Shown: positions 40,107 to 64,000, numbered from the stretch's first letter. The stretch is 64,000 bases of DNA from a virus (IMGVR_UViG_3300031760_000003:1-64000), one strand, 5' to 3'. Made by a program: numbers and translations. Notes: generated by a model not told the origin, from the sequence alone.

Positions 40107-40972
40107 TAAAAATTCTCCTTTTTTTAACTCTAATATTATTATAACAAAAATTTTAAAACTTTTCAATAGTTTTTTGGTCAAAAATTTTGCGGGAAGAGGG
40201 TTTTTTAAGTAGGAGGGGAGGGAGGGAATATAGTAATCGTTTTTAGAAATGAAAAAAACTTTTGGAGCGGGTGTTGTGGAGCAAAACCCATTTTACCGAA
40301 TTCGCCCAGAAAATCCCATAATACCACCCCCACCTATTGCAAAATCAGAGACCCTATCTTGTCTTTTACACGGGGGAGGGGTAGGAATTAATTCAAAACA
40401 GATAAGGAATCCTCGGTTTGTCAACTCAAGAGACAAACCGAATTTGCGTATAATATCAGTTTTACGTAAAAATTGGAACGATTTCATCATCACCAAAACG
40501 AAGAAAAAAATCCGAAAAAACACTTTTTTACCTTTTGACATCGATGTCATTTTCTGATGGAAAACTGCCTTTTTCTCTTGGCGTTTCGCATCATCGCAAT
40601 ATGGTAGAAATCGCAAATCTTTCAAAAAATCCAGGAAAAACGCACGATGGCTACACGCAGCTACACCTATACATTATTCGTCGGTCCGCATCCTACCCGC
40701 GCGGACCGAATTTTCGCATTATACCATATCTACCAAAATTTGTCAATAGTAAATATGCACAAAAATATAGAAAAAATTTTCCCGAAATTTGTACAGTTTA
40801 TCTCTTGACATTTTCTTTATGGTATGGTATAATTGTAGGCTAACAAGGATCCTGCTGCCTTAACTGGTCCTATTGTATTAAATAAAAAAAAATAAATTTT
40901 TTTAAAAAAAGTATTGACAAGATAAACTTGTAATGTTATAATGTATTTACAAGATAAGGAAAGGAAAGGTAA

Positions 40973-41149
40973 ATGATTATGACAAACACAACAACAACTA
41001 ACAACAATAAAACTTATAATTGGAGAAATGCTAGAAAAAGTCACAAGTGTATCGAAATCTCACCCTTTGAGAAAGAAGAAGCTAAAAAAAGAAAGAATTT
41101 AAACGTTGGTGTTTTCAGAGGCTTCATGTCTGATGGTCACTATCTCTAA
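40973..41149 (+). CDS. Small basic hypothetical protein (58 aa)
   Basis: Own promoter, GAAAGGT RBS, downstream terminator. Confidence 0.6.
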   Translation: MIMTNTTTTNNNKTYNWRNARKSHKCIEISPFEKEEAKKRKNLNVGVFRGFMSDGHYL

Positions 41150-41274
41150 AAGATAGTGACTTTTTATTATTTTAAAAATTTTTTAAAAAAAGTATTGACA
41201 AGGTAACCTTGTAATGTTATAATGTATTTACAAGGTAAGGAAATAAACAAAACAGAAAGTAAGAGGTAAAGGTT

Positions 41275-41460
41275 ATGACAGTAGTAGAAATCAAGGAAAT
41301 GATTAAAAATATGAAGGATACAGACAAAGTTATCTTTGTAAAAGAAACAACAGATAGAGATGGTTATCCTTATGAAGTAAAAGAAAATATCGTTGCTATC
41401 GTTAAAGAGGGAACAGAAAAAGTCAATGTTGGTTGTGGTATCATGAGATATAAAAGATAA
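41275..41460 (+). CDS. Small hypothetical protein
   Basis: Own promoter and GAGGT RBS. Confidence 0.7.
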   Translation: MTVVEIKEMIKNMKDTDKVIFVKETTDRDGYPYEVKENIVAIVKEGTEKVNVGCGIMRYKR

Positions 41461-41541
41461 AAAAATTTAAAAAAAAGTGTTGACAAAAGGTATGACATAT
41501 GATAATATATAATTATCAAGAGGAAAGGTAAGGTAACAAAT

Positions 41542-41724
41542 ATGAAAGTAACAAAAGCAATCGAAATCACAAAAGAAATCTACGAGAAATATAAAACAGG
41601 TATTCCTTCACAGGCACAGGAAGAGGTTTACGGTAGAATTGCGAAAATGGTATTCATCTATAATCCTTATGTATACAAGTCAATGGATGGAAAATATTTT
41701 GCAAGTTATTCATATTATGATTGA
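41542..41724 (+). CDS. Small hypothetical protein, paralogue of 42094..42285
   Basis: KVTK-x-IE-x-TKEIY...YSYYD shared; own promoter and RBS. Confidence 0.8.
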   Translation: MKVTKAIEITKEIYEKYKTGIPSQAQEEVYGRIAKMVFIYNPYVYKSMDGKYFASYSYYD

Positions 41725-41781
41725 CAAAATGAAACAGATATGATAATATATAATTATCAAAGGAAAGGTAGGTATAAAGTT

Positions 41782-41871
41782 ATGTTAGTAGTTATAGTGG
41801 TTACAATGTTTTCAATAATTCCAGCAGTAAAACTTGAGCAGAAAATTAAAAAAGTTATGAATATCGCTTGA
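41782..41871 (+). CDS. 29-aa hydrophobic peptide
   Basis: Own promoter and RBS; stop codon lies inside TTGACA. Confidence 0.45.
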   Translation: MLVVIVVTMFSIIPAVKLEQKIKKVMNIA

Positions 41872-42093
41872 CAAATGCTCTACCTTATGGTAGAGTTGTC
41901 GGTCTGCGATGGGTTGCCGCAGACCGATTTTACTATTATACCATCTCTTGCGGATTTTGTCAATAGGAAAATTGCACAAAAATTTACACAAACGGATCCC
42001 GATATTTGTGCAACTTTTTCTAAAAAAGGTGTTGACAAAATAAAAAGGGTATGATAATATATAATTATCAAAGGAAAGGTAAGGTAAACAGAT

Positions 42094-42285
42094 ATGAGCA
42101 AAGTAACAAAGACAATCGAAACTACAAAAGAGATTTATGATAAGTACCACGAAACAGGCGTACCTTCAAAGGCTTATGAGGAAGTTTATGGCAGAGTTGC
42201 ATCTATAGTATGTATTTATGGTCCTTGCACAGTATATAAAACACCCGATGAAAAATATGTTGCAAATTATTCATATTATGATTGA
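42094..42285 (+). CDS. Small hypothetical protein, paralogue of 41542..41724
   Basis: Paralogy, promoter, RBS. Confidence 0.8.
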   Translation: MSKVTKTIETTKEIYDKYHETGVPSKAYEEVYGRVASIVCIYGPCTVYKTPDEKYVANYSYYD

Positions 42286-42342
42286 CAAAATATTGGTTTT
42301 GTGGTAATATATAATTATCAAAGGAAAGGTAAGGTAATAAAT

Positions 42343-42462
42343 ATGAAAAGAGTTAGAGTAGAGTTTTGGTGTGATGCAATAGAAATTGCAAAAAAGGCTA
42401 TCGATGCAATCATTTATGAAGATAGTTATATAGGTTACGTAGTAGAGTATGTGGCTATTTAG
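42343..42462 (+). CDS. 39-aa protein MKRVRVEFWCDA..., paralogue of 44478..44597
   Basis: Paralogy, promoter, RBS. Confidence 0.75.
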   Translation: MKRVRVEFWCDAIEIAKKAIDAIIYEDSYIGYVVEYVAI

Positions 42463-42855
42463 GCGGCAAGGCGATATGCGGGAACGTGTATCGCCGGCGC
42501 GTCTGCACTTGAGACGCGCCGTTCTATCTATTATACCATACCTTGAATATTTTGTCAATAGTAAAAATGCACAAAAATAACAAGAAAAAAATCCTATAAT
42601 TTGTACACTTTTTCCTCTTGACAAATTCCTTGCGGTATGGTATAATGATTTGCGGCTTGCGGTGTATCATAAAAGATATATTGTATTAAATATAATTTGA
42701 TACAATATAATTCGTTAATTTTCACAAAATTTTAGGATTTTTTTGTGAAAAATAAAAATTAAAAAATTTTTAAAAAAGTGTTGACAAGATAAACTTGTGA
42801 TGTTATAATGTATTTACAAGGTAAGGAAATAAATAAAAGAAAAGAGGTATTTAGT

Positions 42856-43032
42856 ATGAGCAATATGAAAATGATGGTTACCGTTAACAATACACCTGAG
42901 GTATTAAGCAAAGGATTTGTAGTTGCAAGATACTGGGATGGAGAGCTTTGGTATTATGGCAAGTATGATTCTAAACAGTTCGCAAAAGAGGTTGCTGAAC
43001 AGGTAGACGGAATAGTCTTGACAATAGAATAA
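42856..43032 (+). CDS. Small hypothetical protein, paralogue of 46471..46641
   Basis: VNNTP...FVVAR-x2-DGELWY-x-G shared. Confidence 0.8.
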   Translation: MSNMKMMVTVNNTPEVLSKGFVVARYWDGELWYYGKYDSKQFAKEVAEQVDGIVLTIE

Positions 43033-43147
43033 GGTTAAATATGGGGAGTTGAAAAAATAACTCCCCAACAAAAAAAATAAAAAAATGCTTGACAAATAAA
43101 ATCAAAGTGATATAATATAATTATCAAAGGAAAGGTAGGTAACTAAT

Positions 43148-43378
43148 ATGAATAAAGAAAAATTTTGGGATAACATCGGATACGTAATAATGGCACTTTT
43201 ACTTGTAGGACAGGTTACTGTTGGTTGGTTATTTATGGTAGGTCAGGGTGCTTACTTACTCGGTAACATTATAAATGTTATTCGTGATTTTAAACTTGGC
43301 AGACCTCGAGCAGATAAAGTAAAAAATATTTGCTTTACTGCCATAACAGTAGGACTTATAATTTTATATATTTTTTAA
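43148..43378 (+). CDS. Small membrane protein
   Basis: Three hydrophobic segments; promoter and RBS. Confidence 0.7.
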   Translation: MNKEKFWDNIGYVIMALLLVGQVTVGWLFMVGQGAYLLGNIINVIRDFKLGRPRADKVKNICFTAITVGLIILYIF

Positions 43379-43458
43379 AAAAAGTCCTTGACAAATGAAA
43401 AAATTTTTATTATAATAAGTATATAAGATAAAACAAAAGAAAGGTTAGGTACAAAATT

Positions 43459-43674
43459 ATGAGACAGTTAATTTGGGTTAAGGCAGACGGAACAGAGTCA
43501 AAGACATACGTTAAGGGGGCAACTACTAAGTTAGTAAATCTCCCCGAGGATAACGGCAAGTCAAAACTCCTTTTCAAACTTCTCCATCAGCACTACGCAG
43601 AGGTTGGCGCAAAGGTGGTTGAAGAACTCAAGAACGGCACTTACAAGTCAGAAAATTACGCTTTATATATGTAG
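43459..43674 (+). CDS. Small hypothetical protein
   Basis: Promoter, RBS, downstream terminators. Confidence 0.7.
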   Translation: MRQLIWVKADGTESKTYVKGATTKLVNLPEDNGKSKLLFKLLHQHYAEVGAKVVEELKNGTYKSENYALYM

Positions 43675-43954
43675 CGGCAAGGGGGCTTAAAGCCCCTGCC
43701 CGCAAATCATCTTACCTCCTCCCTATACCTTAAGGCACCCTATTTGCAAGGGTGCCTTACTTTTTGGGCGTGTCGTCATGGGTCGCGACGACACGTGTTT
43801 TTCATTATACCATACTCTGAATATTTTGTCAATAGTAAAAGTGCATAAAAATTCATCTCTTCGGATCCTGAAATTTGTGCAACTTTTTTTTTAAAAAGGT
43901 ATTGACTAATGGATGCGAGTATGGTATATTATAATTACAGAAAGGGAAAAGAAA

Positions 43955-44074
43955 GAAAGTGGATAACCTTTCAAAGAGATAGTTAGCAATGAAAAGTGAA
44001 AAGTAGGGATTTCTAAATTAAAGAATTTAGAGGTTTTGAAAAATAACTTTTTACCTGACGGAAACTTTCACCGA
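43955..44074 (+). ncRNA. Structured ncRNA, copy A (homologue at 51540)
   Basis: Own promoter, no ORF, stems covary with copy B. Confidence 0.7.
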
Positions 44075-44162
44075 AACTTAAAAAATTTTTAAAAAAGTAG
44101 TTGACAAATATTAACAGATATGTTAAGATATAATCAGAAAGAGGAAAGAGAGGTAAACAGTT

Positions 44163-44396
44163 ATGATGAACAAAGAATATTTTGAAAACTTATTACAGGA
44201 ATTAGTTGCTTGTGGAATAATCTACATCAAGGAATACAAAGGCACTGTTAATGTAACTTTTGAAGATGTGGATTTTGTTGATGAAAGAGCCGAAGAATTA
44301 GAAAATTTCTTCTATGAAATGTGTGAAGGAGATTTTTATCTCTCAGGCGAAATTTTTGGTAAAGATTACGTAGTAGGTTTTGGAGATATGGAATAA
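44163..44396 (+). CDS. Small acidic hypothetical protein
   Basis: Promoter; GAGAGGT RBS. Confidence 0.7.
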   Translation: MMNKEYFENLLQELVACGIIYIKEYKGTVNVTFEDVDFVDERAEELENFFYEMCEGDFYLSGEIFGKDYVVGFGDME

Positions 44397-44477
44397 TAAA
44401 AATCTTCAAAAACCTATTGACAAATACTCACAAGTATGATATAGTATAATTAACAAAAGGAAAGAGAGGTAATGAGT

Positions 44478-44597
44478 ATGAAGAGAGTAAGAGTAGAGTT
44501 TTGGTGTGAAGCATTAGAGTTAGCAAAGAAAACTATTGATGCAGTAATTTATCAAGATAGTTATGTTGGGTATGTAGTAGAATACGTTCCCGCTTAA
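44478..44597 (+). CDS. 39-aa protein, paralogue of 42343..42462
   Basis: Paralogy, promoter, RBS. Confidence 0.75.
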   Translation: MKRVRVEFWCEALELAKKTIDAVIYQDSYVGYVVEYVPA

Positions 44598-44681
44598 CTA
44601 AAAAAATTTAAAAAAGTATTGACAACCTTTAAATTATCTGATATAATTTAATCAAGATAAAAGAAAGAGAGGTAAACGCTT

Positions 44682-44846
44682 ATGAAGAACTACACAATTA
44701 GATTTTACACAACTGTTGATACAATAATCGAAATGAACATTGAAGCAAAGAACATGCTTGTTGCAGAAAACATTGCTTATGATAACTTTGCTAATGGTGG
44801 TTATGAAGGCTCTATTGTAAGAGTTGAGGCTTCTGGAAGAATTTAA
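44682..44846 (+). CDS. Small hypothetical protein (54 aa)
   Basis: Promoter; GAGAGGT RBS. Confidence 0.65.
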   Translation: MKNYTIRFYTTVDTIIEMNIEAKNMLVAENIAYDNFANGGYEGSIVRVEASGRI

Positions 44847-45054
44847 AAAATTCTTCCAAAACCACTTGACAAAAATTATTTTTCTGGCTGGCGCGCTTAC
44901 CTTCGGCGCGCGCTGAATTTTACATTATATCACAGCACCGATATTTTGTCAATAGTAAAAGTGTACAAAAATTTACCTCTTCCGATCCCGAAATTTGTGC
45001 AACTTTTTTGTATTTACCTATTGACTTATTCTGTAGTTATGGTATACTTGTATT

Positions 45055-45340
45055 ATCAAAGAGATGAGGAATAAGGACCGAGCCTACAGGGTGGGCGAGA
45101 ATTGTGGTGACTAAGTCCTAGGGGTGTCACCGCACTCGCGAAACTAACAGAGATACCCATTAAATCGGTGGTGCCTATCACGAGGCAGTTTCTCCTAAAA
45201 GATATCGTGACAGTGACCCTTAACTTTTCCACCACTAAGGCAATGGAAAATGACCTATGTTGTGCTATCGAGCAAGGTCGGGCAGAAAATTGCATACCGG
45301 TAGCAAGTTGGAGAGGGGGTTTTAATCCCTCTCCTTTTTC
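45055..45340 (+). ncRNA. Candidate ~285-nt structured ncRNA
   Basis: Promoter at 45021, elevated GC, multiple stems, terminator, no RBS-supported ORF. Confidence 0.6.
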
Positions 45341-45564
45341 TTTTGAGCGTCGCGTCAACTCAAGAGACGCGACGTATTTTCAATTATGTTACGCATAACA
45401 TATTTTTGTCAATAGGCAATTTGAACAAAAATGCAATGGAAAAGATCCTGAAATTTGTGCATATTTTTTTTTAAATTTTTCTAAAAAGTGTTGACACGCA
45501 CCCTATAAAATGGTAGTATATATATGTAAGGAAGAGATAACAACCAACTTGGAGGTAAAAAGAT

Positions 45565-45873
45565 ATGATAAACATTAGAACACTTAGAAACATTAAGAAC
45601 AACGGTGGTTTAACACTTAAGAACGGCAAGGCTATCACTTATAAAACAGGTTGGCAGGTTGCCACTGAAGGTGTACAGACAACCGATATCAACGAAGTCC
45701 GCGGACTTATTAAAAAATACAATGGTAACTGTGGGCTGTGGCTTGAAAATGGCGTATGGTATGTTGATAAAAGCCATAGAGTAAACACAAAAAAGGAAGC
45801 ACTCCGAATCGGTAAAGAGTGCAACCAAATATCAGTTTTAAAATGGTCTGATATGTCCCTTGCCTACTGCTAA
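45565..45873 (+). CDS. Hypothetical protein
   Basis: GGAGGT RBS; promoter at 45491. Confidence 0.75.
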   Translation: MINIRTLRNIKNNGGLTLKNGKAITYKTGWQVATEGVQTTDINEVRGLIKKYNGNCGLWLENGVWYVDKSHRVNTKKEALRIGKECNQISVLKWSDMSLAYC

Positions 45874-45980
45874 AAAGTAGGCAAGAAAAAATAAAAAAAA
45901 TTTAAAAAGTGCTTGACAAAATAATCGGTATATGGTAATATATAATCATAAGGAAAACAAAGAAAGGTTGGTATAGAAAT

Positions 45981-46124: not shown

Positions 46125-46470
46125 CCTCCTACCTTACCTACGGGGCGCCAATTCGGCGCCCTCTTTTGTTTTGGACGGGCAGCGATGAACCGCCGCTGCC
46201 CGAATTTTTAATTATATCACCCTTTGCGATTTTTGTCAATAGGAAAATTGCACAAAATTTTTAACAATTTCATCCTAAAATTCTATGTATTTTTTCTTGA
46301 TGATCTCGGTGTGGATTTGTCAATAGTAAAAATGCACAAAAATTTACAGCAAAAAACTTTATCTTTGTGCAATTTTCTTTAAATTTCCCCTTGAAATCTA
46401 TTTTTGCTTTTGATATAATGTATTTACAAGGTAAGGAAAACAATTCAGTTGTGAAAGGTAGGTGCTTATT

Positions 46471-47027: not shown

Positions 47028-47228
47028 GTAAGGAGCGGGAGGGCGACGCGAAGAGCGGGTCACAAGTAGACCGTGTAAGACCTTTTAAACGCAACGAACA
47101 CCCTGAAAGCAATCTCGGGTAGGAAGCCGAGAAGCCCTTACAAAACAAAAGGCTTGAACTCCAGAGTGTGCCTTAAACACGAGAAGAAAGTGAGTAAAAA
47201 AGGAAAGACTCCGGAAGGAGTCTTTTTT
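47028..47228 (+). ncRNA. Candidate ~200-nt structured ncRNA
   Basis: Promoter at 46993, GTAAGG/CCTTAC closing stem, terminator, no ORF. Confidence 0.55.
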
Positions 47229-47439
47229 CTTTGGGCGTGGCGTCAACTCAAGAGACGCCACGAATTTAGCATTATACCATGGTCCGCATATTTTGTCAAG
47301 AGTAAATATGCACAAAGATCTGGTCGGTATACTCCTAAAATTTGTGCATCTTTTTTGCTTCTACCTCTTGCAATGTTTTAAAATTTATGTTATTATATCT
47401 ATACAAGGTAAGGAAAAACATCAAAGCGAGGTACTTAAT

Positions 47440-48067: not shown

Positions 48068-48302
48068 GCCGCCATCTCCCAAGGCTTTGAACGTCGCGTA
48101 ATCTACCCGCCACGCGACGTATTTTGCGATTATACCATATTCGGTAAAATTTGTCAATAGGCAATTTGTACAAAATTTTTAGCATAGGAATCCCGAAATT
48201 TGTGCATATTTTTTCTATAAAAATGTTGACATATTTTTACTATGTGGTATACTAATAATGTAAGGAAGATAAACAACCAAATCGGAAAGGTAGGTAAGAA
48301 TT

Positions 48303-48833: not shown

Positions 48834-49017
48834 AAAGGTGTCGCCAATAGCTTTGGCGGCACGTGATTTGCTGACACGTGCCGCATTTTTTGTCAATAGG
48901 TATTTTCAACAAATTTTCATTTGAATTTTTGTGTAATTTGTCTATTGTATTTTTCCGTCAATTTGCTATAATGTATTTACAAGGTAAGGAAAACAAGCAA
49001 AACAGAAAGAGAGGTAA

Positions 49018-49704: not shown

Positions 49705-49927
49705 GCAAGTACGCGACGCTCATTAAGTTGGGCGTCGCGTTAGCACTTGTAACGCGACGAATTTTCAATTATACCACACCCTGTAAAATTTGTCAATAGG
49801 CAAAATGCACAAAAATGTGACTGTTGCAATCCCGAAATTTGTGTAACTTTTTTTCTAAAACCCCTTGCAAAGTTCTAAAATGTATGGTATTATATCTTTA
49901 CAAGGTAAGGAAAGCGAGGTATTAAGT

Positions 49928-51368: not shown

Positions 51369-51539
51369 ATTTATAAAATGGCTCGGCATTTCTATTCGCC
51401 GAGCCGTGCGCATTTCACACGGCTCGTATTTTTGTCAAGATGGCAATTTGTATAAAAATAAAACTGATATTTTGTGCAATATTCCCTATTGTAATTATCC
51501 CATAATGTGTTATACTATAATTACAGAAAGGAAAGAAAT

Positions 51540-52084: not shown

Positions 52085-52286
52085 TTAAAAGAGGGGTTAA
52101 CCCCTCTTTTTTTTGTTCGGCGGCTCGCTTGCATTCGAAGCGAGCCGCATTTTGTCAAGTAGTAATATTCGATAAATTTTATAACTGAAATTTAGTAATA
52201 TTTACTACTTGCATTTATCCCTTATTTTGCTATAATTATACTTGTAAGGAACAAGAAAACAAGTTAAGAAAGGTTGGTAAAAAGAA

Positions 52287-53561
52287 ATGGCACTTACAAA
52301 AAATGAGAAATTTAAACTTGATGATTTTATGTGTAGACATATCAATGAGTATTTGACAACAAAAAATGTTCCTATCTCAACTATTCATTCTGATATGGAA
52401 AATGATGATGTTATATTTTCCACCCCCTTAAAGTTGGTAAGCCTTCAGGCAAGTGGCAAAAGAATAGATGAAAATATTAGTATAAAAAGAGATGGTAATA
52501 TTTTAGTATTCGTAAAAGGAGCCTTTTTAAAATTTAATGGTCTTTCTTATGAGTACGGCAAGGTTACCAAAGAAAAAAATATTATTCACCTTACAGGTTA
52601 TACGGGATTACAGTATGACGTTATCACAAAAGAGTTTAATATCAATATAAATAACTGTAAAGACTTTACTCGCCATTATGGTAATTTTGAAAATATGGCT
52701 AATAACTATGAATGGATTTTTAACTATCAGAATGACATCCATGAGATAAAAAATATAATTGAAATGTGTGAAAATTTTGGGTACAAGACAATGCCTAAAG
52801 GGTTGTCTAAAGAGTTAAATGGAAACAGTTTAACTGCCGATTATCTTAAAAAGTATCTTTTAAGAAATTATAGTGGTAAATATTACAATATAAGTGAAAG
52901 TATGTATCGTTACGCAAGTGGAATTTCAATTCCCGATTTAATTAAAACTATATCATGGATAAATGAAAACATACCTTTTGAAAGTTTTATAAAAATGGTT
53001 AAAAACGAAATAGTTTCAGAGGATTTTCGTAGTAATCTTATTATCAATGGTGACATGGAAACATTCTTTGAAAGTGTTAGACGTATGCTTAAAAAATGGG
53101 ATGATAAAGAGCCGTTTAAATTCAATTTTGAAAGAGGTCTTACCTATAACTGTGACGCAATGAACGATTATACAGATAAAGAAAAAAATAAAAAACTTGC
53201 TACTAAATTACAGGCATTTAACTTTATCAATAATCTAAAAATCAATGATGATAAATATATTGTAGTAGTACCCCAAACGCAAAGCGATAAACGTGAAGAG
53301 GGTAGACAGCAGAATAACTGTGTTGGCTCTTACTATGATGATTATATTATGTCAGGTCACGGCACTGTTTATTTCATAAGAAAGGCAAATAATAAAAATC
53401 ACTCTTTTATCACTTGCCGTTATGATTATCGTGATAATAGAACTGTCGAGGCAAGATATGTAAACAATAATAGTATCGAAGATGAAGATAAAGAAATTAT
53501 AAAGAGTCTCGATAAAATAATCAAAGAAAAACTTAATGAAAAAAGAAAGGAAGAAAACTAA
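52287..53561 (+). CDS. PcfJ-like domain protein
   Basis: C-terminal P...EGRQQNNCVGSYY...YFIRK...FIT motif. Confidence 0.7.
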   Translation: MALTKNEKFKLDDFMCRHINEYLTTKNVPISTIHSDMENDDVIFSTPLKLVSLQASGKRIDENISIKRDGNILVFVKGAFLKFNGLSYEYGKVTKEKNIIHLTGYTGLQYDVITKEFNININNCKDFTRHYGNFENMANNYEWIFNYQNDIHEIKNIIEMCENFGYKTMPKGLSKELNGNSLTADYLKKYLLRNYSGKYYNISESMYRYASGISIPDLIKTISWINENIPFESFIKMVKNEIVSEDFRSNLIINGDMETFFESVRRMLKKWDDKEPFKFNFERGLTYNCDAMNDYTDKEKNKKLATKLQAFNFINNLKINDDKYIVVVPQTQSDKREEGRQQNNCVGSYYDDYIMSGHGTVYFIRKANNKNHSFITCRYDYRDNRTVEARYVNNNSIEDEDKEIIKSLDKIIKEKLNEKRKEEN

Positions 53562-53562
53562 A

Positions 53563-53904
53563 ATGAGAAAAATCACTAACCACATTTACCTTGATGAAGA
53601 AAACGGCGCTATTGCCATTGACGCAACAACAGAGGGAGAGGCAAGAGAAATTGCTTTAAGATTTCTGCGTGATAACGGCATCCCCAACCTTTACGGAATT
53701 TCCGTAGGGGATGAAACGGCACTTGCAAGACTTGACATCCCGAGAGGTATGGAAGATACATTGCTCAACCACGATGAAGAGGGAGAGCAGATGGAAGAAT
53801 ATACAGCCCCTCTTATGCGTCAGACACTCTCACGGCTTATTGATATGGGACTTATCAGAGAAGATACCCCCTATCAGAACAACGATGACGATTATTTGTG
53901 GTAA
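53563..53904 (+). CDS. Acidic hypothetical protein
   Basis: ATG 53563, coupled to the upstream stop. Confidence 0.7.
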   Translation: MRKITNHIYLDEENGAIAIDATTEGEAREIALRFLRDNGIPNLYGISVGDETALARLDIPRGMEDTLLNHDEEGEQMEEYTAPLMRQTLSRLIDMGLIREDTPYQNNDDDYLW

Positions 53905-54129
53905 AAATGTGGCACGGCTAAGGGTAAAACCTTTGGTCGTGCCATTTTCTGTCGAAATGGCACGAATTTCGCATTATACCACCCGCCGCATATTTTGTCA
54001 ATGGTAAATTTGTACAAAAGTAACACAAGAAAAATCCTAAAATTTGTACAACTTTTTTCATCATATCCCTTGCAATTCTCAACGTATATGGTATAATTTA
54101 ATTACAGTAAAGGAAAGGAAAACAAAAGT

Positions 54130-54594
54130 ATGGCAGATAAAATTTTAGTATTTGATATGGATGGAACTATCGCAGACCTTTATGGAGTAAACGGATGGTT
54201 GGAAGATTTAAGGTCTTATAATCCTCGACCGTATGAAAATGCTCTACCTATGTATGATATGGATGAACTTAACAGGGTAGTTAATACTCTAAAGGAATCT
54301 GGTTGGAGAGTAGTTGTAACCTCTTGGTTGGCAAAGCAGAGCCACCCTACCTATGATAACAAGGTAAAGAAAGCAAAACTTAAATGGCTTGAAAAGTATA
54401 ACTTCCCCTATGATGAGATACACCTTGTTAAGTATGGTACAACAAAAGCAAATTGCACTCGTCACCACGGTGGTTATCAGGTCTTGGTTGACGATAATGA
54501 GAAAGTGAGAAAGGGTTGGAAATTAGGTAGCACAATAAACGCTAACGAAAATATATTAAAAGATTTGGTGGCTCTTATAGGAGCCACCGCCTAA
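54130..54594 (+). CDS. HAD-superfamily phosphatase (5'(3')-nucleotidase-like)
   Basis: Motif I FDMDGTIAD, VTS, K, LVDD. Confidence 0.8.
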   Translation: MADKILVFDMDGTIADLYGVNGWLEDLRSYNPRPYENALPMYDMDELNRVVNTLKESGWRVVVTSWLAKQSHPTYDNKVKKAKLKWLEKYNFPYDEIHLVKYGTTKANCTRHHGGYQVLVDDNEKVRKGWKLGSTINANENILKDLVALIGATA

Positions 54595-54618
54595 AACAAA
54601 AGAAAAGGAGAAAATAAA

Positions 54619-55106: not shown

Positions 55107-55383
55107 CGGAGATGTCGCGGTTAGGGGCTAAAGTCCTTGGTCGCGGCGTTTTCCTGCGGAACGCCGCGTATTTTTTGTCAATATGTATTTTTACTAATTT
55201 TATTTTTCAATTTTTGGTAACATTTATCTATTGTAATTTTCCCATTATTTGTTATAATGGTATTATCAAAGAGGTAAATAATATGAAATAACTTGATTTT
55301 ATTCAAGAAAAATAAAAAATTTTTATTGACAAATAAAAAATTTTCTGTTATAATAAATACATAAGATAAAGAAAGGAAAAACA

Positions 55384-56078: not shown

Positions 56079-56152
56079 GTGCCTGTAACTCAATTGGCTA
56101 GAGTAACCGGCTTTTAACCGGTAAGTTGTGGGTTCAAGTCCCACTAGGCACA
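56079..56152 (+). tRNA. tRNA-Lys(TTT)
   Basis: Acceptor GTGCCTG/TAGGCAC, D arm, anticodon arm ACCGG-CTTTTAA-CCGGT, T arm GTGGG-TTCAAGT-CCCAC; followed by CTA rather than CCA. Confidence 0.9.
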
Positions 56153-56530
56153 CTAGGAGTTTTACTGTAAAGGGTTTCTTCCATGCGTAAATAAAAACTA
56201 TTACACGGGGCTTTTTGGTAGCACACAGTATTTTCCTCGAAAGTTAGAAAGAACTACCCCTTGGTGAAAAGGGCGAAACACTGAGATGAGTTGCACATCG
56301 CTCTCACGGTAGCCAAAATAACTAGAGCAGTTTTAGCAAGAGGTTTCTGCTTATCAAAAAACCTCACGGTAGTTTTTTACGGAGTGACAACCATTTTTCT
56401 ACCTTAAAAGAAAAAATTGTTGTTAAAAGGGTTTTTAGTGTTTAGAATAGTTGTCGATTTTTCCCCTTGCAAAACACATCAACTATCAAACGCGTTGAAA
56501 GGCATCTCTGACGAGAGATGTCTTTTTTTT
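56153..56530 (+). ncRNA. Candidate structured RNA(s) co-transcribed with the tRNA
   Basis: ORF-free; hairpins, an H-type pseudoknot at 56325-56365 and a terminal terminator. Confidence 0.45.
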
Positions 56531-56719
56531 TGTCGGCTCGACATGGGTCGCGTCGAGCCGAATTTCTAATTATACCACCTTCCGCAAAATTTGTCAATAG
56601 GCAATTCCACCAAAAACGTCTTCCCGCAACTCCCAAAATTTGTGCAATATTACTACTTGTTTTTCCTACTGTATCTGTTATAATATATATATCAGTTAAG
56701 AAAAGAAAGGAAAGTAAAA

Positions 56720-57938: not shown

Positions 57939-58173
57939 AATGTCAAGAGAAAAGGTAGATAAAAAATCTACCTTTTTTTGTGTAATTTTACCTATTGACA
58001 TGCGGCAAGAGGTATGGTATAATGGGCGGTGCGTTCGCTACTCAAACGCACCGCATTTTCGTTTATTGTATAATTTGTATAATTTTAAACTGTAAATTTG
58101 GTCATTATTACTACTTGTATTTATCCTATAATATGTTATACTTATATTATCAAAGAAAGAGAGGTAAACAGTT

Positions 58174-58335
58174 ATGGAAAATAAAAACATTATGGATATC
58201 ATTGAAGAAAAGATTAAAGAGATACCTTTAAAGGGTTCGAGAGAATCTGACTTTTTGGAACTCGGTATGCGCATTGTATACGCAGAGATTCTCGATTATC
58301 TTACAGAAGAAGAACTTACAAAAATAAGAAAATAG
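58174..58335 (+). CDS. Small hypothetical protein (53 aa)
   Basis: Promoter; GAGAGGT RBS. Confidence 0.65.
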   Translation: MENKNIMDIIEEKIKEIPLKGSRESDFLELGMRIVYAEILDYLTEEELTKIRK

Positions 58336-58374
58336 TAGTTGACAAACAATAAAAAATATGGTATAATAAATATA

Positions 58375-58460
58375 TAAGAGGTGGCGGAAAGGTAAACGCC
58401 GGATGTGACTCGTTCTCTGAAAAGAGTGTAGAATTGCAGGTTCGAATCCTGTCCTCTTAA
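58375..58460 (+). ncRNA. tRNA-like RNA with aberrant anticodon arm
   Basis: Acceptor TAAGAGG/CCTCTTA, D arm TGGCGGAAAGGTAAACGC, T arm GCAGG-TTCGAAT-CCTGT; own promoter at 58339. Confidence 0.7.
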
Positions 58461-58583
58461 CTCTAAATCAATTCATACTTACCTTCCTTTCAAAAGGCAC
58501 TGTTCAGTTTAAGACTTGGGCAGTGCTTTTTGCTTGACAAATTTTAAAAATTATGTTATAATATTATTAGAAAGTGAGAAAGT

Positions 58584-58757
58584 ATGATTTATAAAGTTGA
58601 CAATGTAAACAAAATTGACTATTATCGGCAAGATAAAGATTCTAAACAACAAAAGAAAAAAGATAAACGAGAACAAGAGAAGAAGAAACAAACAAGTTTT
58701 GAGGATATCTTTGCGGAAGAACTTGAATCTTTATCTAATTTTGATGTGAAGATATAA
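58584..58757 (+). CDS. Small charged hypothetical protein (57 aa)
   Basis: Promoter at 58534; weak RBS. Confidence 0.55.
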   Translation: MIYKVDNVNKIDYYRQDKDSKQQKKKDKREQEKKKQTSFEDIFAEELESLSNFDVKI

Positions 58758-58930
58758 GCTGCGGCAAGGCACTTTACTCGACCGCGGCGTGTTTTGACGC
58801 AACGCCGCGAGTTTTTTGTCAAGATGTATTTTCACTAAATTTTAATTTCCATTTTTGTATAATACTACCTATTGCTTTTGTCCCGAAATAGTGGTATTAT
58901 TAGTATATCAAAGAAAGAGAGGTAACAGTT

Positions 58931-59143
58931 ATGGAAAAGAAATTTGAAAATAAAGATAGAGTTTTAATGGAAAATGCCTTTTTTACTCAGGACAATATAG
59001 GTGTATATGGTTGGTATGGATTAGACTATTTTGAAATAGAAAATAAAGAAGATTTTATAAACCTAAAACGAGATGAATTTTTAACCTTATATAATTTAGT
59101 AGTAGAAATGAAAAAAGAAATTGACAGATTAGAGAATTTATAG
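58931..59143 (+). CDS. Small hypothetical protein
   Basis: GAGAGGT RBS. Confidence 0.7.
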   Translation: MEKKFENKDRVLMENAFFTQDNIGVYGWYGLDYFEIENKEDFINLKRDEFLTLYNLVVEMKKEIDRLENL

Positions 59144-59180
59144 TATAATAAAGTTAATCAAAGAAAGAGAGGTAAGCAAA

Positions 59181-59345
59181 ATGACAGATTACGAAAGATT
59201 AGTTTTAAGAATGAATATTATCGGTGGTATTTTTCAGGATATGGGTAACGAAAATGTAACCGAGAATGACCTTGAAAATATCGCTAAAGATACTGATAGG
59301 TACAAGAGATTTGTTAATGATTATGTAACCTATGGAATTGAGTGA
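59181..59345 (+). CDS. Small hypothetical protein (54 aa)
   Basis: Promoter at 59121; GAGAGGT RBS. Confidence 0.65.
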   Translation: MTDYERLVLRMNIIGGIFQDMGNENVTENDLENIAKDTDRYKRFVNDYVTYGIE

Positions 59346-59350
59346 CGGCT

Positions 59351-59364
59351 CGAACATACGTTCG
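59351..59364. promoter_or_regulatory. Candidate Gram-positive LexA/DinR (Cheo) box
   Basis: CGAACATACGTTCG matches CGAACRNRYGTTCG; 25 nt upstream of the -35 at 59390. Confidence 0.45.
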
Positions 59365-59448
59365 AACCGCACCTCCGCAAAATTTCTGCTTGACAAATAC
59401 CATTAAAGATGATATACTTATATTATCAAAGAAAGAGAGGTAACAGTT

Positions 59449-59769
59449 ATGGAATTACAAGTAACAATTATTAACCCCACAGGAAAGTATAAGCCTATGT
59501 CTTGTCTCGTACCTATTCCTATGAAAGAGGTAGTTGCAAAGAATTATGAGCCGTATAGAAATAAGGGTGTAATTAAGATTTGTCAGAACAGAAATATGAC
59601 AAGCCGTGACCTTAAAAAGTATGGTTACACACAAGTTAAAATCCGTATCTATGATGCGAAGAAAATCGAAACAGAAAATAAGGAAAGATATGACGCCATT
59701 AAAAGAGAAAAGTTTGCAAGTGGCGAGTGGAAACCCTCAAAGAGAGATATTGAGAAAGGACTGGCATAA
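59449..59769 (+). CDS. Basic hypothetical protein
   Basis: Promoter and RBS. Confidence 0.75.
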   Translation: MELQVTIINPTGKYKPMSCLVPIPMKEVVAKNYEPYRNKGVIKICQNRNMTSRDLKKYGYTQVKIRIYDAKKIETENKERYDAIKREKFASGEWKPSKRDIEKGLA

Positions 59770-59771
59770 AA

Positions 59772-60032
59772 ATGAAGAAAATAATATATGTGTTAACTTT
59801 ATATGATTATGAAATAACTGGTGATGATTGTGATGTTTCTGATAGATGTGCGATTTTAAGTGCTTATGATAGTGAAGAAGAAGCAGAAAAAGGGATGCTT
59901 AACTATTATAATAACTATATCGCTTTAGACAATAATAGTCCTATTGCTAACACTATTGAAGAAATGGAGACTTGTTTAGACAAACTTAACTTCTGGTACG
60001 AGATTACAGATACTCACTACTACACAAGATAA
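59772..60032 (+). CDS. Small acidic protein, paralogue of 54619..54870
   Basis: Paralogy. Confidence 0.8.
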   Translation: MKKIIYVLTLYDYEITGDDCDVSDRCAILSAYDSEEEAEKGMLNYYNNYIALDNNSPIANTIEEMETCLDKLNFWYEITDTHYYTR

Positions 60033-60046
60033 AGGAGAGATATAAA

Positions 60047-60238
60047 ATGAAAAAAATCCCAACAATAACAATTTGCGTAACAAAAGAAGAGCAGAAAATT
60101 TTAAAAAATTTTTATGATACAGTATGTAAAGATACTAATATATCTAATGATGATAGTATTGATATATTAGATAGCATTGCTAAAGAGTGTCCCCTTACAA
60201 ATAATGATTATATAAAAATTGATTTTAAAGAAGAATAA
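60047..60238 (+). CDS. Small hypothetical protein
   Basis: AAGGAG RBS. Confidence 0.7.
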   Translation: MKKIPTITICVTKEEQKILKNFYDTVCKDTNISNDDSIDILDSIAKECPLTNNDYIKIDFKEE

Positions 60239-60264
60239 AAACAAAATATAAGGAGAGATATAAA

Positions 60265-60453
60265 ATGAGATTTACTGTTACTAAAACAATAATTTTAAAT
60301 AAGGCAGAACGTGATGTGCTTACACGATTTGAGGCGATGATAGATGAGATGAACTTAAACGCAGATGAGATAGAACAGTTGTTGTTTGATATTTACCGTG
60401 ATAAAACGCATAGCACTGGGAGTGATATTCTCATCAATTATGTAGACGATTAA
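60265..60453 (+). CDS. Small hypothetical protein
   Basis: AAGGAG RBS. Confidence 0.7.
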   Translation: MRFTVTKTIILNKAERDVLTRFEAMIDEMNLNADEIEQLLFDIYRDKTHSTGSDILINYVDD

Positions 60454-60688
60454 AAAATAAGCCGTTCAAGCATTGACTTGGACGGCTCGTTTGCACTTGA
60501 AACGAGCCGAACTTTCCATTATACCACCTGCCGCAAAATTTGTCAAGAGAAAAAGTGAAAAAATTTTCACAAAAAGTTTTCCTAAAATTTGTGCAATTTT
60601 TTACTCAAAACTACTTGCAATTATTTTAAATAAGAGTATAATTATAATTGTAAGGAAGATAATACACAACAGAAAAGAGGTAACTGTT

Positions 60689-61210
60689 ATGAGTAAAAAA
60701 TTAAAAGGTTTAAAAAAACTTAATAAGGCTATTGGGACACCTATTAAAGAGCGTTTCGGTATTAGCAAAGTTTCTATGACAAAAGACTTTGAATATAGTT
60801 TTGTCAAAGATAGGGTTGGTTGGTCTTTAGTTGAAAACGCATACGCACAGGAAGATTTTATCTCTTTTGTTAAGGATAGATTTAACTATGAGATAGGCAG
60901 ATATAACTTTATAGCAAGTCTTTTGCATGAAGTCGGACACGCAAAAAACAATGATGATATCATTGATAGCGTTCAGGATTTTTGCATTGACGAGAAAGAA
61001 AAAATAGCAAAAGAAATCAATAATGCTACCGATAGAGAAGAAATAAAGAAAATAAACTATAAATATTTCTCTCTCCCCGATGAAATTATGGCTACGGCGT
61101 GGGCAATAAAGTATATGAAAAAACATCCACGTATAATAGCAAAAATGTGGGATGAAATGTGGTCGGCTATTTTGGACTTTTACGAAAAAAATCACCTTGA
61201 GGAAGATTAA
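60689..61210 (+). CDS. Zincin-like metallopeptidase (HEXXH)
   Basis: LLHEVGH plus downstream PDEIMA; start reassigned to ATG 60689 after GAGGT. Confidence 0.65.
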   Translation: MSKKLKGLKKLNKAIGTPIKERFGISKVSMTKDFEYSFVKDRVGWSLVENAYAQEDFISFVKDRFNYEIGRYNFIASLLHEVGHAKNNDDIIDSVQDFCIDEKEKIAKEINNATDREEIKKINYKYFSLPDEIMATAWAIKYMKKHPRIIAKMWDEMWSAILDFYEKNHLEED

Positions 61211-61277
61211 ATCTTCCTTAAGGGGTTGACAATAGCAAATTAAGTGATATAATAGTATTAGAAAGGAGATAAAAAGT

Positions 61278-61619
61278 ATGGCTAAAAAGAATATTGATAA
61301 AGAGGCATTGATAGAGAAGATAATGGCGGAATGTGCTAAAGATGGTGAGCCTGTTACGCGGGAAGAGGCAGAGGAAATGGCGGAAATGGAAATTAAAAGT
61401 GGTGACATTTCTAACTATACCATTTCAGAGAAAAAGGAAAAGGCTGTCCGTAAACCTCGTGAAAAAAAGGTTGATGATGAAAAGGCAAAAATTATAGAAA
61501 TTATAGGAAAAGCCTTGACAGATAATGGCTATAATGCTATAATAACTAATGTAGATAGAGAAATAACTATTGACAATATGTCATTGGTACTTACAAAGCA
61601 CAAGAAAGGTGGTAAATAA
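61278..61619 (+). CDS. Hypothetical protein
   Basis: Promoter at 61226; AAGGAG RBS. Confidence 0.75.
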   Translation: MAKKNIDKEALIEKIMAECAKDGEPVTREEAEEMAEMEIKSGDISNYTISEKKEKAVRKPREKKVDDEKAKIIEIIGKALTDNGYNAIITNVDREITIDNMSLVLTKHKKGGK

Positions 61620-61620
61620 T

Positions 61621-62061
61621 ATGAAATATTTAATAATTAAGTGTAATGAATTAAGTGACCAGTATGAATGTGATGCCGATAGAACTCCTGTATGTTTGAC
61701 TGATGATTTTAAAAAATATGATAGATATGAATATGAGATTTATGAAATCACATCTGAAAATACTTTCAAATTGATTAAAGAATACGGCACCTCTTCAAAT
61801 AAAGGAATGGCTGTCTATAAATGGTATAATGAGGATGATGATAAAGGTGAACCCGATGAAATTATGGTAATGGATAAGAATTATACTCGTGAAGATTATA
61901 CAAAATCAAAAATTAAGCAGATAAAATCTGATTACCATTTTAAAGATAGTGTTAATAAAATATATACTGATATAAAATGCTCAGGTAGTCATGGAGAAGA
62001 AATTAACGACGAATGGGTGGTTATTGGAGAGTATATAGAAGGTGATTATTGGGAGAGATGA
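61621..62061 (+). CDS. Hypothetical protein
   Basis: ATG 61621 after AGGTGG. Confidence 0.7.
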   Translation: MKYLIIKCNELSDQYECDADRTPVCLTDDFKKYDRYEYEIYEITSENTFKLIKEYGTSSNKGMAVYKWYNEDDDKGEPDEIMVMDKNYTREDYTKSKIKQIKSDYHFKDSVNKIYTDIKCSGSHGEEINDEWVVIGEYIEGDYWER

Positions 62062-62087
62062 TATTAAAAAAGAAAGGGTGATGTAAA

Positions 62088-62510
62088 ATGACACGTAGAG
62101 AAGAAGCGATTTTTACTAATGAACTGGTAGAACTTTTAACAGGAGATGATGATACAACTGATAAAGAATTTTTTGAACGGATAATTTGTGCAAATACTGT
62201 TATTGCGAGATGCTTGTCCCGGTTTAAAGATGACTATGATGAGGTTGATACTAAACCTACTCCCACTGTTAAAGAAGAGACTCCTGTACCTCCCTATTAC
62301 GTAGCAAGTGTTAGTAATGGAAAAACTTGTGCGAGTTTAGGTTTTTACTCAATTGAGGAAAAGGCTCAAGCAAGTATTATAAAATATGAAAATACGTTAA
62401 ACTCATCAAAGTCCTATGATAATTGGGGTGATTTTATACATGATTATTGCAATAATGAAACTCAAATCACTGATTATGATATCTCAATGGAATATCTCGA
62501 TGTTGATTAA
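62088..62510 (+). CDS. Acidic hypothetical protein
   Basis: RBS; bidirectional terminator at about 62509-62533. Confidence 0.7.
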   Translation: MTRREEAIFTNELVELLTGDDDTTDKEFFERIICANTVIARCLSRFKDDYDEVDTKPTPTVKEETPVPPYYVASVSNGKTCASLGFYSIEEKAQASIIKYENTLNSSKSYDNWGDFIHDYCNNETQITDYDISMEYLDVD

Positions 62511-62975
62511 AAAGTGCCGTAAGGCACTTTTTTATTGTTCCGACGGGTCGCGATGAACCGCCGCGACCCGAAATTTCCATTATACCACTTTCCGCACATT
62601 TTGTCAAGTGAAAATTTGCACAAAAATTTACAAGTTTTAATCCCAAAATTGTACTTTACTTTTGCTAAAATTTTTGGTATACTTATTATAGATGGAAAGG
62701 AAACAAGCCGTTAACGGCTATAAGTAAAGGGGTTTCCGTGGCTATATGTGAGGGTTTAGGTAGTCATCTAAAAAAATAAAAAATTTTTGTTGACAAACAA
62801 AAAATCTTATGTTATAATAAATACATAAGATAAAGAAAGAGGAAAAGTCAAGTACCTCTTAAAAAATTTAAAAAAAAATAAAAAAAAACACTTGACAAAC
62901 TTAATAAAGAATGTTATAATAATAACATAAAGAACAACAAACAAACAAATTTTTTAAGAAAGGTGGTCATTAACT

Positions 62976-63338
62976 ATGGCAGAGAAGAAAGTAACTAAGG
63001 TGGAGAAATTTAACGCAATTGCAAAGGTACTTGCTGATGCAGGTGTTGAGAAAATCTCTATCCGCAACGAAGAGGTCAATGTAGCAGAGTTCATCGGTAA
63101 CGAGGTTGCTCTTATCGAGAAGAAAGCATCAAAGGCTACAACCAAGAGAGTAGACAATTCAGAGGGTATCGCAAAGGTACGTGAGGTACTTGCAGACGGC
63201 AAGGCTTACACTCCTACTGAAATTCAGGCTCTCACAGGACTTGTCAATACGCAGAAAGTCGCTTCAGTCCTCAAGGCTATGGGCGATAGCGTAAAGAGAG
63301 AGTCAAAGGGCAAGAAAGTAACTTACAAACTTGCCTAA
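62976..63338 (+). CDS. Putative winged-HTH DNA-binding protein
   Basis: YTPTEIQALTG...TQKVASVL...VKRESKGKKVTY; tandem strong promoters; biased codons. Confidence 0.6.
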   Translation: MAEKKVTKVEKFNAIAKVLADAGVEKISIRNEEVNVAEFIGNEVALIEKKASKATTKRVDNSEGIAKVREVLADGKAYTPTEIQALTGLVNTQKVASVLKAMGDSVKRESKGKKVTYKLA

Positions 63339-63369
63339 TCGGAAATGGGGCTTTTAATAGCCCCACTCC

Positions 63370-63761
63370 CTTAGGGGAAATTGGGGATGGATGGCTACCC
63401 CTGTTCCGCGACTAAAACCTAACCCGAAGGAAAAAGCGTGATATCCCGTAGAAAAGACGTTACAACTCCGTAGGTGATAGATGCTACGTATTAAAAAGTC
63501 TATCGCTACCGTCAAGGTTATGAAAGTTCAACCTGACTTGCAGAGAAAAACTTGCTCCCTGTGGAAAGCGTGGTTATCCTTTCCCGTTGTGCATTACGTT
63601 AAATCCCGTAGAACAAAGAGCAGATTTACTACGATAGAAAACATGCTGCCCGGTTGGTACCACGATATAATACTACGCTTAAAGATTTCCACGTGAAAGA
63701 AATCTCTTAAAAAGCATCCCACTATTACGAGGTCTGCAACTCGCGTAGGGGTGCTTTTTTT
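63370..63761 (+). ncRNA. Candidate ~390-nt structured ncRNA
   Basis: Elevated GC, many stems, internal sequence repeats, terminal terminator, no RBS-supported ORF. Confidence 0.55.
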
Positions 63762-64000
63762 GTTTGGTCGGGCAGTTCGCTTCTCAAACTGCCCGAAATT
63801 TCCATTATATCACATCCCGCAAAATTTGTCAAGAGGAAATTTACACAAAATATAAAAAAATTTAATCCCGATTTTCGTCATTTTGCCAGTAGTATCTTTT
63901 AAAAAATTTTGATATAATCTATATATAAACAAAAGGGAAAACAAAAATTTTTTAAACGGGAGTTATAAAAAATTTAAAAAACCCTATTGACAAATTTAAA

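Follow-up and report, generated by a model that had tools for sequence, protein, structure and literature searches.

What is the role of the hairpins that punctuate the early region of the virus IMGVR_UViG_3300031760_000003? We addressed this question in the first 64 kb of this single 165,479-bp record (64,000 nucleotides, hereafter the window), in which 21 GC-rich hairpins span positions 40,681-63,796, with stems of 6-12 bp in perfect Watson-Crick pairing and loops of 7-12 nt. A preliminary description of the sequence had drawn attention to loops that recur along the array, and had proposed that these loops are specificity codes displayed on minus-strand RNA. We found that the hairpins belong to a repeated two-promoter cassette. 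The reading that we favour, to which we assign a probability of roughly one half, is that they form the stem-loop part of a composite regulatory cassette, similar to the promoter-early stem-loop (PeSL) cassettes of T4-like phages, with an antisense RNA as its output and with the mosaic loops as a by-product. Hairpins are named here by their first position.

A repeated cassette of two promoters and a hairpin

Fifteen of the 21 hairpins, which we call full-form, each stand at the left edge of a unit of about 170 nt that recurs along the region; we refer to this unit as the cassette. From left to right the cassette consists of TTTGG, the hairpin, AATTTnC, a minus-strand promoter (TTGACA-17-TGnTATAAT), an inverted repeat (TGCACAAAAAT ... 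ATTTGTGCA), a T-run and a plus-strand promoter of the same consensus. The minus-strand promoters score 12/12 and carry the TG extension (11/12 in cassette 6), and 7-9 nt separate them from the stem. Between the -35 elements of the back-to-back promoters (40756-63900), the inverted repeat TGCACAAAAAT ... ATCCCGAAATTTGTGCAA is kept in the 15 copies and in related phages. A scan with a cassette profile returned 15 full copies, in a single orientation and all within 40.7-63.9 kb, together with a few partial copies reaching 66 kb, and none in the rest of the 165-kb genome. Furthermore, the cassette core was found in 72 phage loci of IMG/VR (228 profile hits), and in 61 of the 98 unique hairpins of this family a gap of 7-9 nt lies between the end of the stem and the antisense -10. 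As a control, we located the promoter word at 122 sites in metagenome-assembled genomes (MAGs) of Clostridia. Only 5 of these bacterial sites had a neighbouring hairpin, and these were weak ones; the hairpin next to the promoter is therefore a property of the phage cassette.

Structural selection acts on the hairpin stems. Across the 15 aligned copies, 8/10 pairs vary on both sides while 93% of the cells pair, and the covariation score is 0.731 compared with 0.209 in shuffles (0/500). The six remaining hairpins derive from this form by deletion of about 25 nt between two AATTT repeats, which has removed the antisense -10. These promoter-less hairpins have a good T-tract directly 3' of the stem (5-7 T in 8 nt), whereas that of the full-form hairpins, whose loops are 7-12 nt long, is weak (3-5 T in 8 nt), and a terminator scan flagged just 3 of the full form. 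The two forms interconvert, since hairpins 52120 and 53937 are found in opposite states in the closest relative of this phage (G001, a 101.6-kb IMG/VR contig that is 82-96% identical to the window in syntenic blocks). As for control of the cassette, the inverted repeat TGCACAAA...TTTGTGCA between the two promoters looks like a plausible operator for a regulator, and a protein binding to it would probably set which promoter fires, and when.

Probable transcription through the hairpins

The minus strand is very probably transcribed through the 15 full-form hairpins, because a 12/12 TTGACA-17-TATAAT promoter with a TG extension lies 7-9 nt from each stem. The preliminary description had also called the minus strand the functional one, and this promoter geometry bears it out; the ground given at the time, that many loops can close with G-U on that strand, is by itself a weak argument. 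G-U closure on the minus strand is found in 10 hairpins of the window but these represent 4 loop families, and U-G closure on the plus strand is found in three (44891, 53937 and 55142). Across the family, the folded RNAs contain 46 G-U pairs on the minus strand versus 20 on the plus strand, and in the 98 unique hairpins the loop closures number 34 versus 12 (mean ddG about -0.65 kcal/mol). The promoter-less derivatives show the reverse, with 2 minus-strand versus 7 plus-strand closures (Fisher test of full versus promoter-less form, p = 0.06). Moreover, at one orthologous site in the relative, where the antisense -10 has decayed from TATAAT to TACTAC, the hairpin has gained two plus-strand U-G pairs that would be C-A mismatches if read on the minus strand. 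Our reading of these patterns is that both strands may be transcribed through the palindromes, and that the strand under stronger folding selection tracks the presence of the antisense promoter.

The plus strand carries everything from 40.2 kb on, and in the first 25 kb after this point small open reading frames (ORFs) each have their own host-type promoter. We found no minus-strand ORF with a ribosome-binding site downstream of the hairpins in this region, so the leftward RNAs would be non-coding and antisense to the preceding early gene. The exception to this antisense arrangement is cassette 1, which lies at the true divergence point of the genome.

The same palindromes could instead serve as plus-strand intrinsic terminators that close the early units, the antisense promoter being incidental or needed for the divergent promoter region only. 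Such a role is compatible with the promoter-less derivatives, which retain the hairpin with good T-tracts and closures that favour the plus strand, and with the finding that hairpins move with the upstream unit in rearranged segments; the stem-loops of PeSL cassettes were also shown to terminate transcription (PMC2839356). On the other hand, a canonical and mostly unidirectional terminator lies immediately 5' of at least 46/97 full-form hairpins, so that about half of the full cassettes already have one a few nt upstream. Since such upstream terminators are common and the T-tracts of the full-form hairpins are weak, these are unlikely to be the main plus-strand terminators. Furthermore, loops of 7-13 nt are unusual for terminators, the stem-to-antisense -10 spacing is held tightly at 7-9 nt across the 72 loci, and G-U pairs favour the minus strand in the full form. 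As an explanation of the whole array, termination on the plus strand is thus one that we consider unlikely.

Loops and stems as a mosaic

The loops named in the preliminary description are all present. Read as minus-strand RNA, with positions given for the loops, they are GCGACCCAU at 43778 and 56543, GCAACCCAU at 41909, GCGGUUCAU at 46185 and 62553, UCUUGAGUU at 45357 and 47245, CAAGUGC at 42505, 49743 and 60493, CGAAUGC at 52131, UGAGAAGCG, UGAGUAGCG and UGAAAUGCG at 63778, 58036 and 51409, and GCGGGUAG(G)AU at 40690 and 48100; hairpins 44891, 48856, 53937, 55142 and 58783 were absent from that list. The reuse of loops goes beyond chance, with four pairs carrying identical 9-mers. Hairpins with the same loop have 125-nt right flanks that are 53-61% identical, the mean for all pairs being 61%, and the reuse is therefore not due to recent duplication of whole cassettes. 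It had also been pointed out that identical loops sit on different stems. This was observed in 7 pairs, but it does not hold as a one-sided contrast, given that 8 pairs share a stem word of at least 7 nt under different loops (shuffled expectation 0.7, maximum 4 in 1,000). No pair of hairpins shares both stem and loop. Eight stem-sharing and seven loop-sharing pairs, with none sharing both, are as predicted by the free reassortment of two small pools.

Comparison with the relative gives a measure of how fast each part changes. Over 18 orthologous hairpins, 11/159 loop sites (6.9%) and 11/344 stem sites (3.2%) have changed (odds ratio 2.25, p = 0.06). Automatic selection by stricter rules yielded 24 orthologous pairs from all loci, with changes at 3.1% of loop sites, 0.5% of stem sites and about 6% of flank sites. 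Loops thus change no more slowly than stems, which is the outcome that the preliminary description had itself named as refuting its proposal. Two sites are particularly informative. At 46176 the relative has ATGGGTCGC in place of the loop ATGAACCGC; each of these words occurs elsewhere in both genomes, and the stem is retained except for one compensated pair. At 58026 the loop CGCTACTCA is retained and three stem pairs (six bases, on both arms) are changed into a stem of the 60483 type; here the left flank differs in the relative and the synteny block starts inside the hairpin. Judged from the aligned sequences, both are cases of word-for-word replacement and not of point drift. Ends of synteny blocks fall within 12 nt of a hairpin in 6/35 cases versus 4.6% expected (p = 0.005), and a 1-kb indel between cassettes 43769 and 44891 distinguishes the window from the relative. 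In addition, two gene segments within 52085-54596 are in swapped order in the corresponding loci of the relative (L083/L084, 90.8-93.3 kb), with the junctions exactly at hairpins 52120 and 53937. Quasi-palindromes are known to undergo templated correction of one arm from the other. From these comparisons the loop vocabulary looks like a product of recombination and not like a molecular code.

Could recombination be the function itself? GC-rich palindromes, acting as cruciforms or as replication-stall sites, could be hot spots that shuffle the early genes at the DNA level, and this would be compatible with the enrichment of breakpoints at hairpins, with the indel and the segment swap just described, with the observed stem and loop swaps, and with the PeSL crossovers that were mapped inside the loop (PMC2839356). 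Recombination can, on the other hand, follow from the repeats alone and need not be a selected function. At the same time, the compensatory evolution of the stems and their strict position relative to the promoter favour a role at the level of RNA or transcription, so we regard a DNA-level role as rather improbable.

The proposal that the loops are specificity codes implies trans-acting proteins or RNAs, one partner for each loop class, possibly acting through kissing interactions. Several observations are in keeping with it: hairpins with an identical loop differ in 1-3 compensated stem pairs and have flanks at background identity, one orthologous site has switched its loop exactly between existing words, ATGGGTCGC is found on at least 4 different stems, one of them in a more distant phage, and within classes the outer loop positions are constant while the central triplet varies. 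However, stems are reused as much as loops, and orthologous loops change more per site than stems in both comparisons given above. The loops of the related phages are also very diverse, with 86 distinct loops of 4-14 nt among the 98 hairpins of the 72 loci. Loop reuse is moreover lineage-specific: 10/14 loops recur on another stem in this genome, compared with 2/32 in other contigs with 4-10 cassettes. Six to eight loop classes would also require equally many partners, and loop-word targets elsewhere in the 165-kb genome are not enriched. A scan of IMG/VR for two of the loop words beside a -10 returned mostly chance matches, the real ones being the known relative and one further lineage. We therefore consider a loop code improbable. 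The loop lengths of the family are mostly odd, which would fit an imperfect palindrome continuing towards an apex of 3-5 nt. More generally, palindromes that are dispersed repeats and evolve as mosaics can mimic selection on loops.

Other properties suggested for the loops were not borne out. ACCC/GGGU and CUUG/CAAG complementarity, read as a weak hint of kissing, does exist, but in a shuffle test it is at the level of chance: the best loop-loop match has a mean of 2.63 versus 2.60 in shuffles, and 1 pair reaches at least 5 nt versus 2.7 expected. Sense and antisense copies of one hairpin are, besides, trivially complementary. A likeness to tRNA anticodon or T arms was evaluated by asking for a 5-bp stem, a 7-nt loop with U33/R37 or the T-loop UUCRANY, and recognition by tRNA models. 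The stems are of 9-12 bp and not of 5 bp, the loops fit neither consensus in register, and ARAGORN and Rfam found no tRNA at any hairpin, the tRNAs of the region being those at 56079 and 58375 alone. Three further candidates were rejected. Loops as seeds against ribosome-binding sites gave P about 0.04-0.05, a marginal value driven by two or three loops (44891, 40681, 51400) and not shared by the loops as a group; small ORFs starting from an ATG in the loops of two classes, like the minus-strand ORFs downstream of the hairpins, are not conserved and have no ribosome-binding sites; and site-specific recombinase sites (lox/FRT-like or attC-like) were discarded because the arms are not conserved. 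As a separate observation, the plus-strand loops TTACCTTCG (44891-44911) and ..CCTACCC.. (40681-40709, also 48091-48120) complement the early-gene ribosome-binding words AAGGTAA and GGTAGG; a complement of at least 6 nt is present in 24/61 leaders for TTACCTTCG and in 8/61 for ..CCTACCC.., and is not seen for the other loop words.

Positions of the cassettes and their surroundings

The 15 full-form (L) cassettes lie as follows, with loops read on the plus strand. Cassette 1 (40672-40827; hairpin 40681-40709, loop ATCCTACCCGC; minus promoter 40718-40746, plus promoter 40805-40833) sits where the leftward late genes and the rightward early genes diverge. In cassette 2 (41890-42044; hairpin 41899-41927, loop ATGGGTTGC; minus promoter 41935-41963), a plus promoter at 41868-41896 abuts the stem on its left. 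Cassette 3 (42486-42642) has its hairpin at 42495-42521 with loop GCACTTG and its minus promoter at 42530-42558. Cassette 4 (43759-43913; hairpin 43769-43795, loop ATGGGTCGC; minus promoter 43804-43832) has a canonical plus-strand terminator (43731-43759) just 5' of its hairpin, and cassette 5 (44879-45033) has a short hairpin (44891-44911, loop TTACCTTCG; minus promoter 44924-44952). The minus promoter of cassette 6 (45338-45493; hairpin 45348-45374, loop AACTCAAGA), which is the one scoring 11/12, is at 45383-45412. Cassette 7 (46166-46315; hairpin 46176-46202, loop ATGAACCGC; minus promoter 46211-46239) is the site at which the orthologue in the relative has loop ATGGGTCGC. It is followed by cassette 8 (47226-47380; hairpin 47236-47262, loop AACTCAAGA; minus promoter 47271-47299), cassette 9 (48082-48238; hairpin 48091-48120, loop AATCTACCCGCC; minus promoter 48129-48157) and cassette 10 (49723-49877; hairpin 49733-49759, loop GCACTTG; minus promoter 49768-49796). 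The orthologue of cassette 11 (53928-54082; hairpin 53937-53965, loop TCTGTCG; minus promoter 53973-54001) is promoter-less in the relative. The last four are cassette 12 (56524-56680; hairpin 56533-56561, loop ATGGGTCGC; minus promoter 56569-56597), cassette 13 (60473-60627; hairpin 60483-60509, loop GCACTTG; minus promoter 60518-60546), cassette 14 (62534-62687; hairpin 62544-62570, loop ATGAACCGC; minus promoter 62579-62607) and cassette 15 (63759-63911; hairpin 63768-63796, loop CGCTTCTCA; minus promoter 63804-63832).

Among the promoter-less (S-class) hairpins, all assigned to the plus strand, the one at 48856-48884 (loop ATTTGCTGA, with ATTTTTTGTCAA directly 3' of the stem) is without an antisense -10 and is terminator-like on that strand. 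The hairpin at 51400-51426 (loop CGCATTTCA, then TATTTTTGTCAA) has one arm in common with an upstream hairpin at 51380-51405. The orthologue of 52120-52148 (loop GCATTCG) retains the antisense promoter in the relative, and two more hairpins of this class are at 55142-55168 (loop TTCCTGCGG, then TATTTTTTGTCAA) and 58783-58809 (loop GTTTTGACGCA, then AGTTTTTTGTCAA). At 58026-58054 (loop CGCTACTCA, no strand assigned) the antisense promoter is degenerate and a 12/12 plus promoter at 57995-58023 ends 2 nt 5' of the stem. Consensus plus-strand promoters thus end 2-3 nt 5' of two hairpins, 41899 (promoter 41868-41896) and 58026 (promoter 57995-58023), where convergent promoters face each other across one hairpin, as they do in two of the related loci (L022 and L056). 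At four sites (49711-49759, 51380-51426, 53909-53965 and 60440-60509) the 5' arm of the cassette hairpin has an alternative partner in a segment further upstream, and this pairing gives a three-arm fold of the attenuator type; the alternative hairpin 51380-51405 is terminator-like on the minus strand.

To the left of the array, 2.2-40.2 kb is taken up by structural or late genes on the minus strand, among whose products are a portal protein, a tape-measure-like protein of 2,944 aa and a sigma-like protein. Each of the 15 antisense promoters is directed at this 38-kb leftward block and the terminators upstream of the hairpins are mostly unidirectional, so the promoter-proximal hairpins could potentially act as put-like polymerase modifiers or as nut/boxB-like antiterminator sites that allow leftward read-through into the late genes. 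Nevertheless, such a site would need a common loop or stem consensus and there is none, fifteen copies are unnecessary for this role, and the elements are freely lost and gained between relatives; the chance that antitermination is their function seems to us very slight indeed. About 500 nt (40200-40680) separate cassette 1 from the sigma-like gene's own promoter (40166-40138). Both strands of this interval have overlapping ORFs with no clear ribosome-binding site, a weak terminator-like site lies on the minus strand at 40659-40641, and the RNA that cassette 1 would send leftwards could be either a leader or a small RNA of its own. The two tRNAs of the region are a tRNA-Lys(UUU) at 56079-56153 and, within 58339-58461, a long-arm tRNA with a 12/12 consensus promoter directly 5' of it, which ARAGORN identifies as tRNA-Val(GAC) and Rfam scores at 39 bits.

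The nearest relatives of the portal protein are in SPbeta-like phages, in large phages of Enterococcus and Lactococcus, and in uncultured gut phages (phAss-1), and a megablast of the hairpin region against GenBank phages returned no match. The promoter word of the cassette is common in MAGs of Clostridia, Oscillospiraceae and Ruminococcus from ruminant guts, so the host is most likely a Clostridium-class bacterium of the gut or rumen.

A model for the cassette

We hypothesise that the host-type minus-strand promoter starts an RNA 0-4 nt before the stem, as the geometry of the cassette suggests. Transcription would proceed leftwards into the preceding early gene and yield an antisense RNA with the hairpin as a stem-loop at its 5' end. 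In this position the hairpin would most likely stabilise the antisense RNA against decay that depends on the 5' end, and either the RNA or convergent transcription itself could dampen or shut off the preceding early gene. The inverted-repeat operator would decide which of the two back-to-back promoters fires. On the plus strand, the full-form hairpin could be a secondary or backup terminator, or an insulator, and the promoter-less hairpin the main terminator. Recombination would break at or inside hairpins and reassort arms and apical loops among the copies, the palindrome being re-perfected afterwards, and a small pool of loops combined with a small pool of stems could in this manner yield many combinations within one lineage.

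Several points weigh against this model. The start sites, the antisense RNAs and the effect on early genes are all predictions from sequence. The preference of loop closures for the minus strand falls to 17 versus 11 (p = 0.35, not significant) once similar loops are collapsed, and the energy difference alone stays nominally significant (mean ddG -0.63 kcal/mol, p = 0.03). For this collapse loop-based clusters were used, given that whole hairpins, under single-linkage clustering with a loose threshold, all fell together. Recombination with correction rests on two clear swaps and one breakpoint statistic, and the antisense promoter is dispensable at single sites, 52120 and 53937 being two at which close relatives differ by its gain or loss. 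Both promoters of the cassette share the host consensus, which would not account for a difference in timing between the two. Finally, identical 9-nt loops persist on cassettes whose flanks have diverged by about 40%, which could reflect selection on loops, and a more distant phage (L213/L217) has ATGGGTCGC on yet a fourth stem; for these two reasons some selection may act on apical sequences. In a stronger version, every one of the roughly 21 hairpins would have an identity of its own, made up of stem and loop together and recognised in trans by phage or host factors; the antisense RNAs would serve as an addressable set for timing when each early gene is shut off, and selection would act on the loop words within the lineage. 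We regard this version as very doubtful.

If the antisense RNAs do exist, the cassette would be a modular off-switch for early genes that is copied along with the gene. A family of large gut and rumen phages of Clostridia organises its fast-evolving early genes with a mobile module of two promoters and a hairpin. The early regions that it marks are hypervariable and likely to hold genes for host takeover or counter-defence, which makes the cassette a useful marker of such regions in these uncultured phages. The idea of an RNA code gives way to a more ordinary and testable picture: the loop vocabulary, the strand call from G-U pairs and the kissing interactions are mostly explained away, and the cassette array merits an expression experiment.

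Comparison with known systems

At the gathering threshold, Rfam returned a tRNA and nothing else. With a loose threshold the family RF03083 (cow-rumen-3) gave a weak minus-strand match at 51398-51524, at 1/21 sites (26.3 bits versus a gathering threshold of 86.7), in which the terminal hairpin of the model aligns with the UGAAAUGCG hairpin. We rejected membership, the score being far below the gathering threshold and no match reaching it in 12 related loci; a literature search for cow-rumen-3 returned no paper. Compared with nut/boxB or put-type sites, the hairpins are likewise promoter-proximal, but they have at least 8 loop classes in one genome and no family consensus. Their loop complementarity, which is not beyond chance, sets them apart from antisense systems that act through kissing loops (ColE1 RNA I/II and the CopA/CopT type).

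Two established kinds of regulation resemble parts of the model. Cis-antisense control and excludon-type arrangements, in which a strong promoter faces the preceding gene and sense and antisense transcription overlap, are predicted here as well, with the difference that this phage has 15 copies of the arrangement in the form of a mobile module; convergent promoters are known to cause transcriptional interference (PMC5001618). Stem-loops at the 5' end stabilise mRNAs in Bacillus, for example in the aprE leader (reviewed in PMC3997798). The cassette shares with these a stable hairpin a few nt from the predicted 5' end of the RNA, and a Firmicute setting in which RNase J1 and RNase Y attack from the 5' end. 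It differs in that the RNA would be a non-coding antisense RNA, with a 5' end predicted from the -10-to-stem distance of 7-9 nt.

The closest parallel is with the PeSL cassettes of T4-like phages, in which sigma-70 promoters are joined to stem-loops and recombination takes place even inside the loop (PMC2839356). As in PeSL (PMC2839356, PMC4122927), the elements are intergenic, of about 100-170 bp, and pair a strong host sigma-70-type promoter with a stable GC-rich stem-loop; dozens of copies are clustered among small early genes that are ORFans; and recombination between copies, with crossovers at or in the stem-loop, causes close relatives to differ by indels and shuffling. In this phage, the conserved promoter with its adjacent stable stem-loop is seen in the 15-copy alignment, in the 12/12 promoters and in the covariation of the stems, the many copies among small early ORFs occupy 40.7-66 kb of the 165-kb genome, and shuffling of the flanked genes is seen in the indels, the swap of gene order, the enrichment of breakpoints (p = 0.005) and a hairpin that is chimeric relative to G001. 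On the other hand, the phage is not a T4-like myovirus but a large phage of a Firmicute host with a very long tape-measure protein, and the G-run/C-run motif described for PeSL is absent, the stems being mixed in C and G and the loops large (7-13 nt). Moreover, there is no sequence homology, and the cassette has in addition an inverted-repeat operator and an antisense consensus promoter directed towards the hairpin. Because it comes from an unrelated phage group, has no sequence similarity and carries this extra promoter and operator, the cassette is, on the basis of this comparison, an analogue of PeSL and not a member of it.

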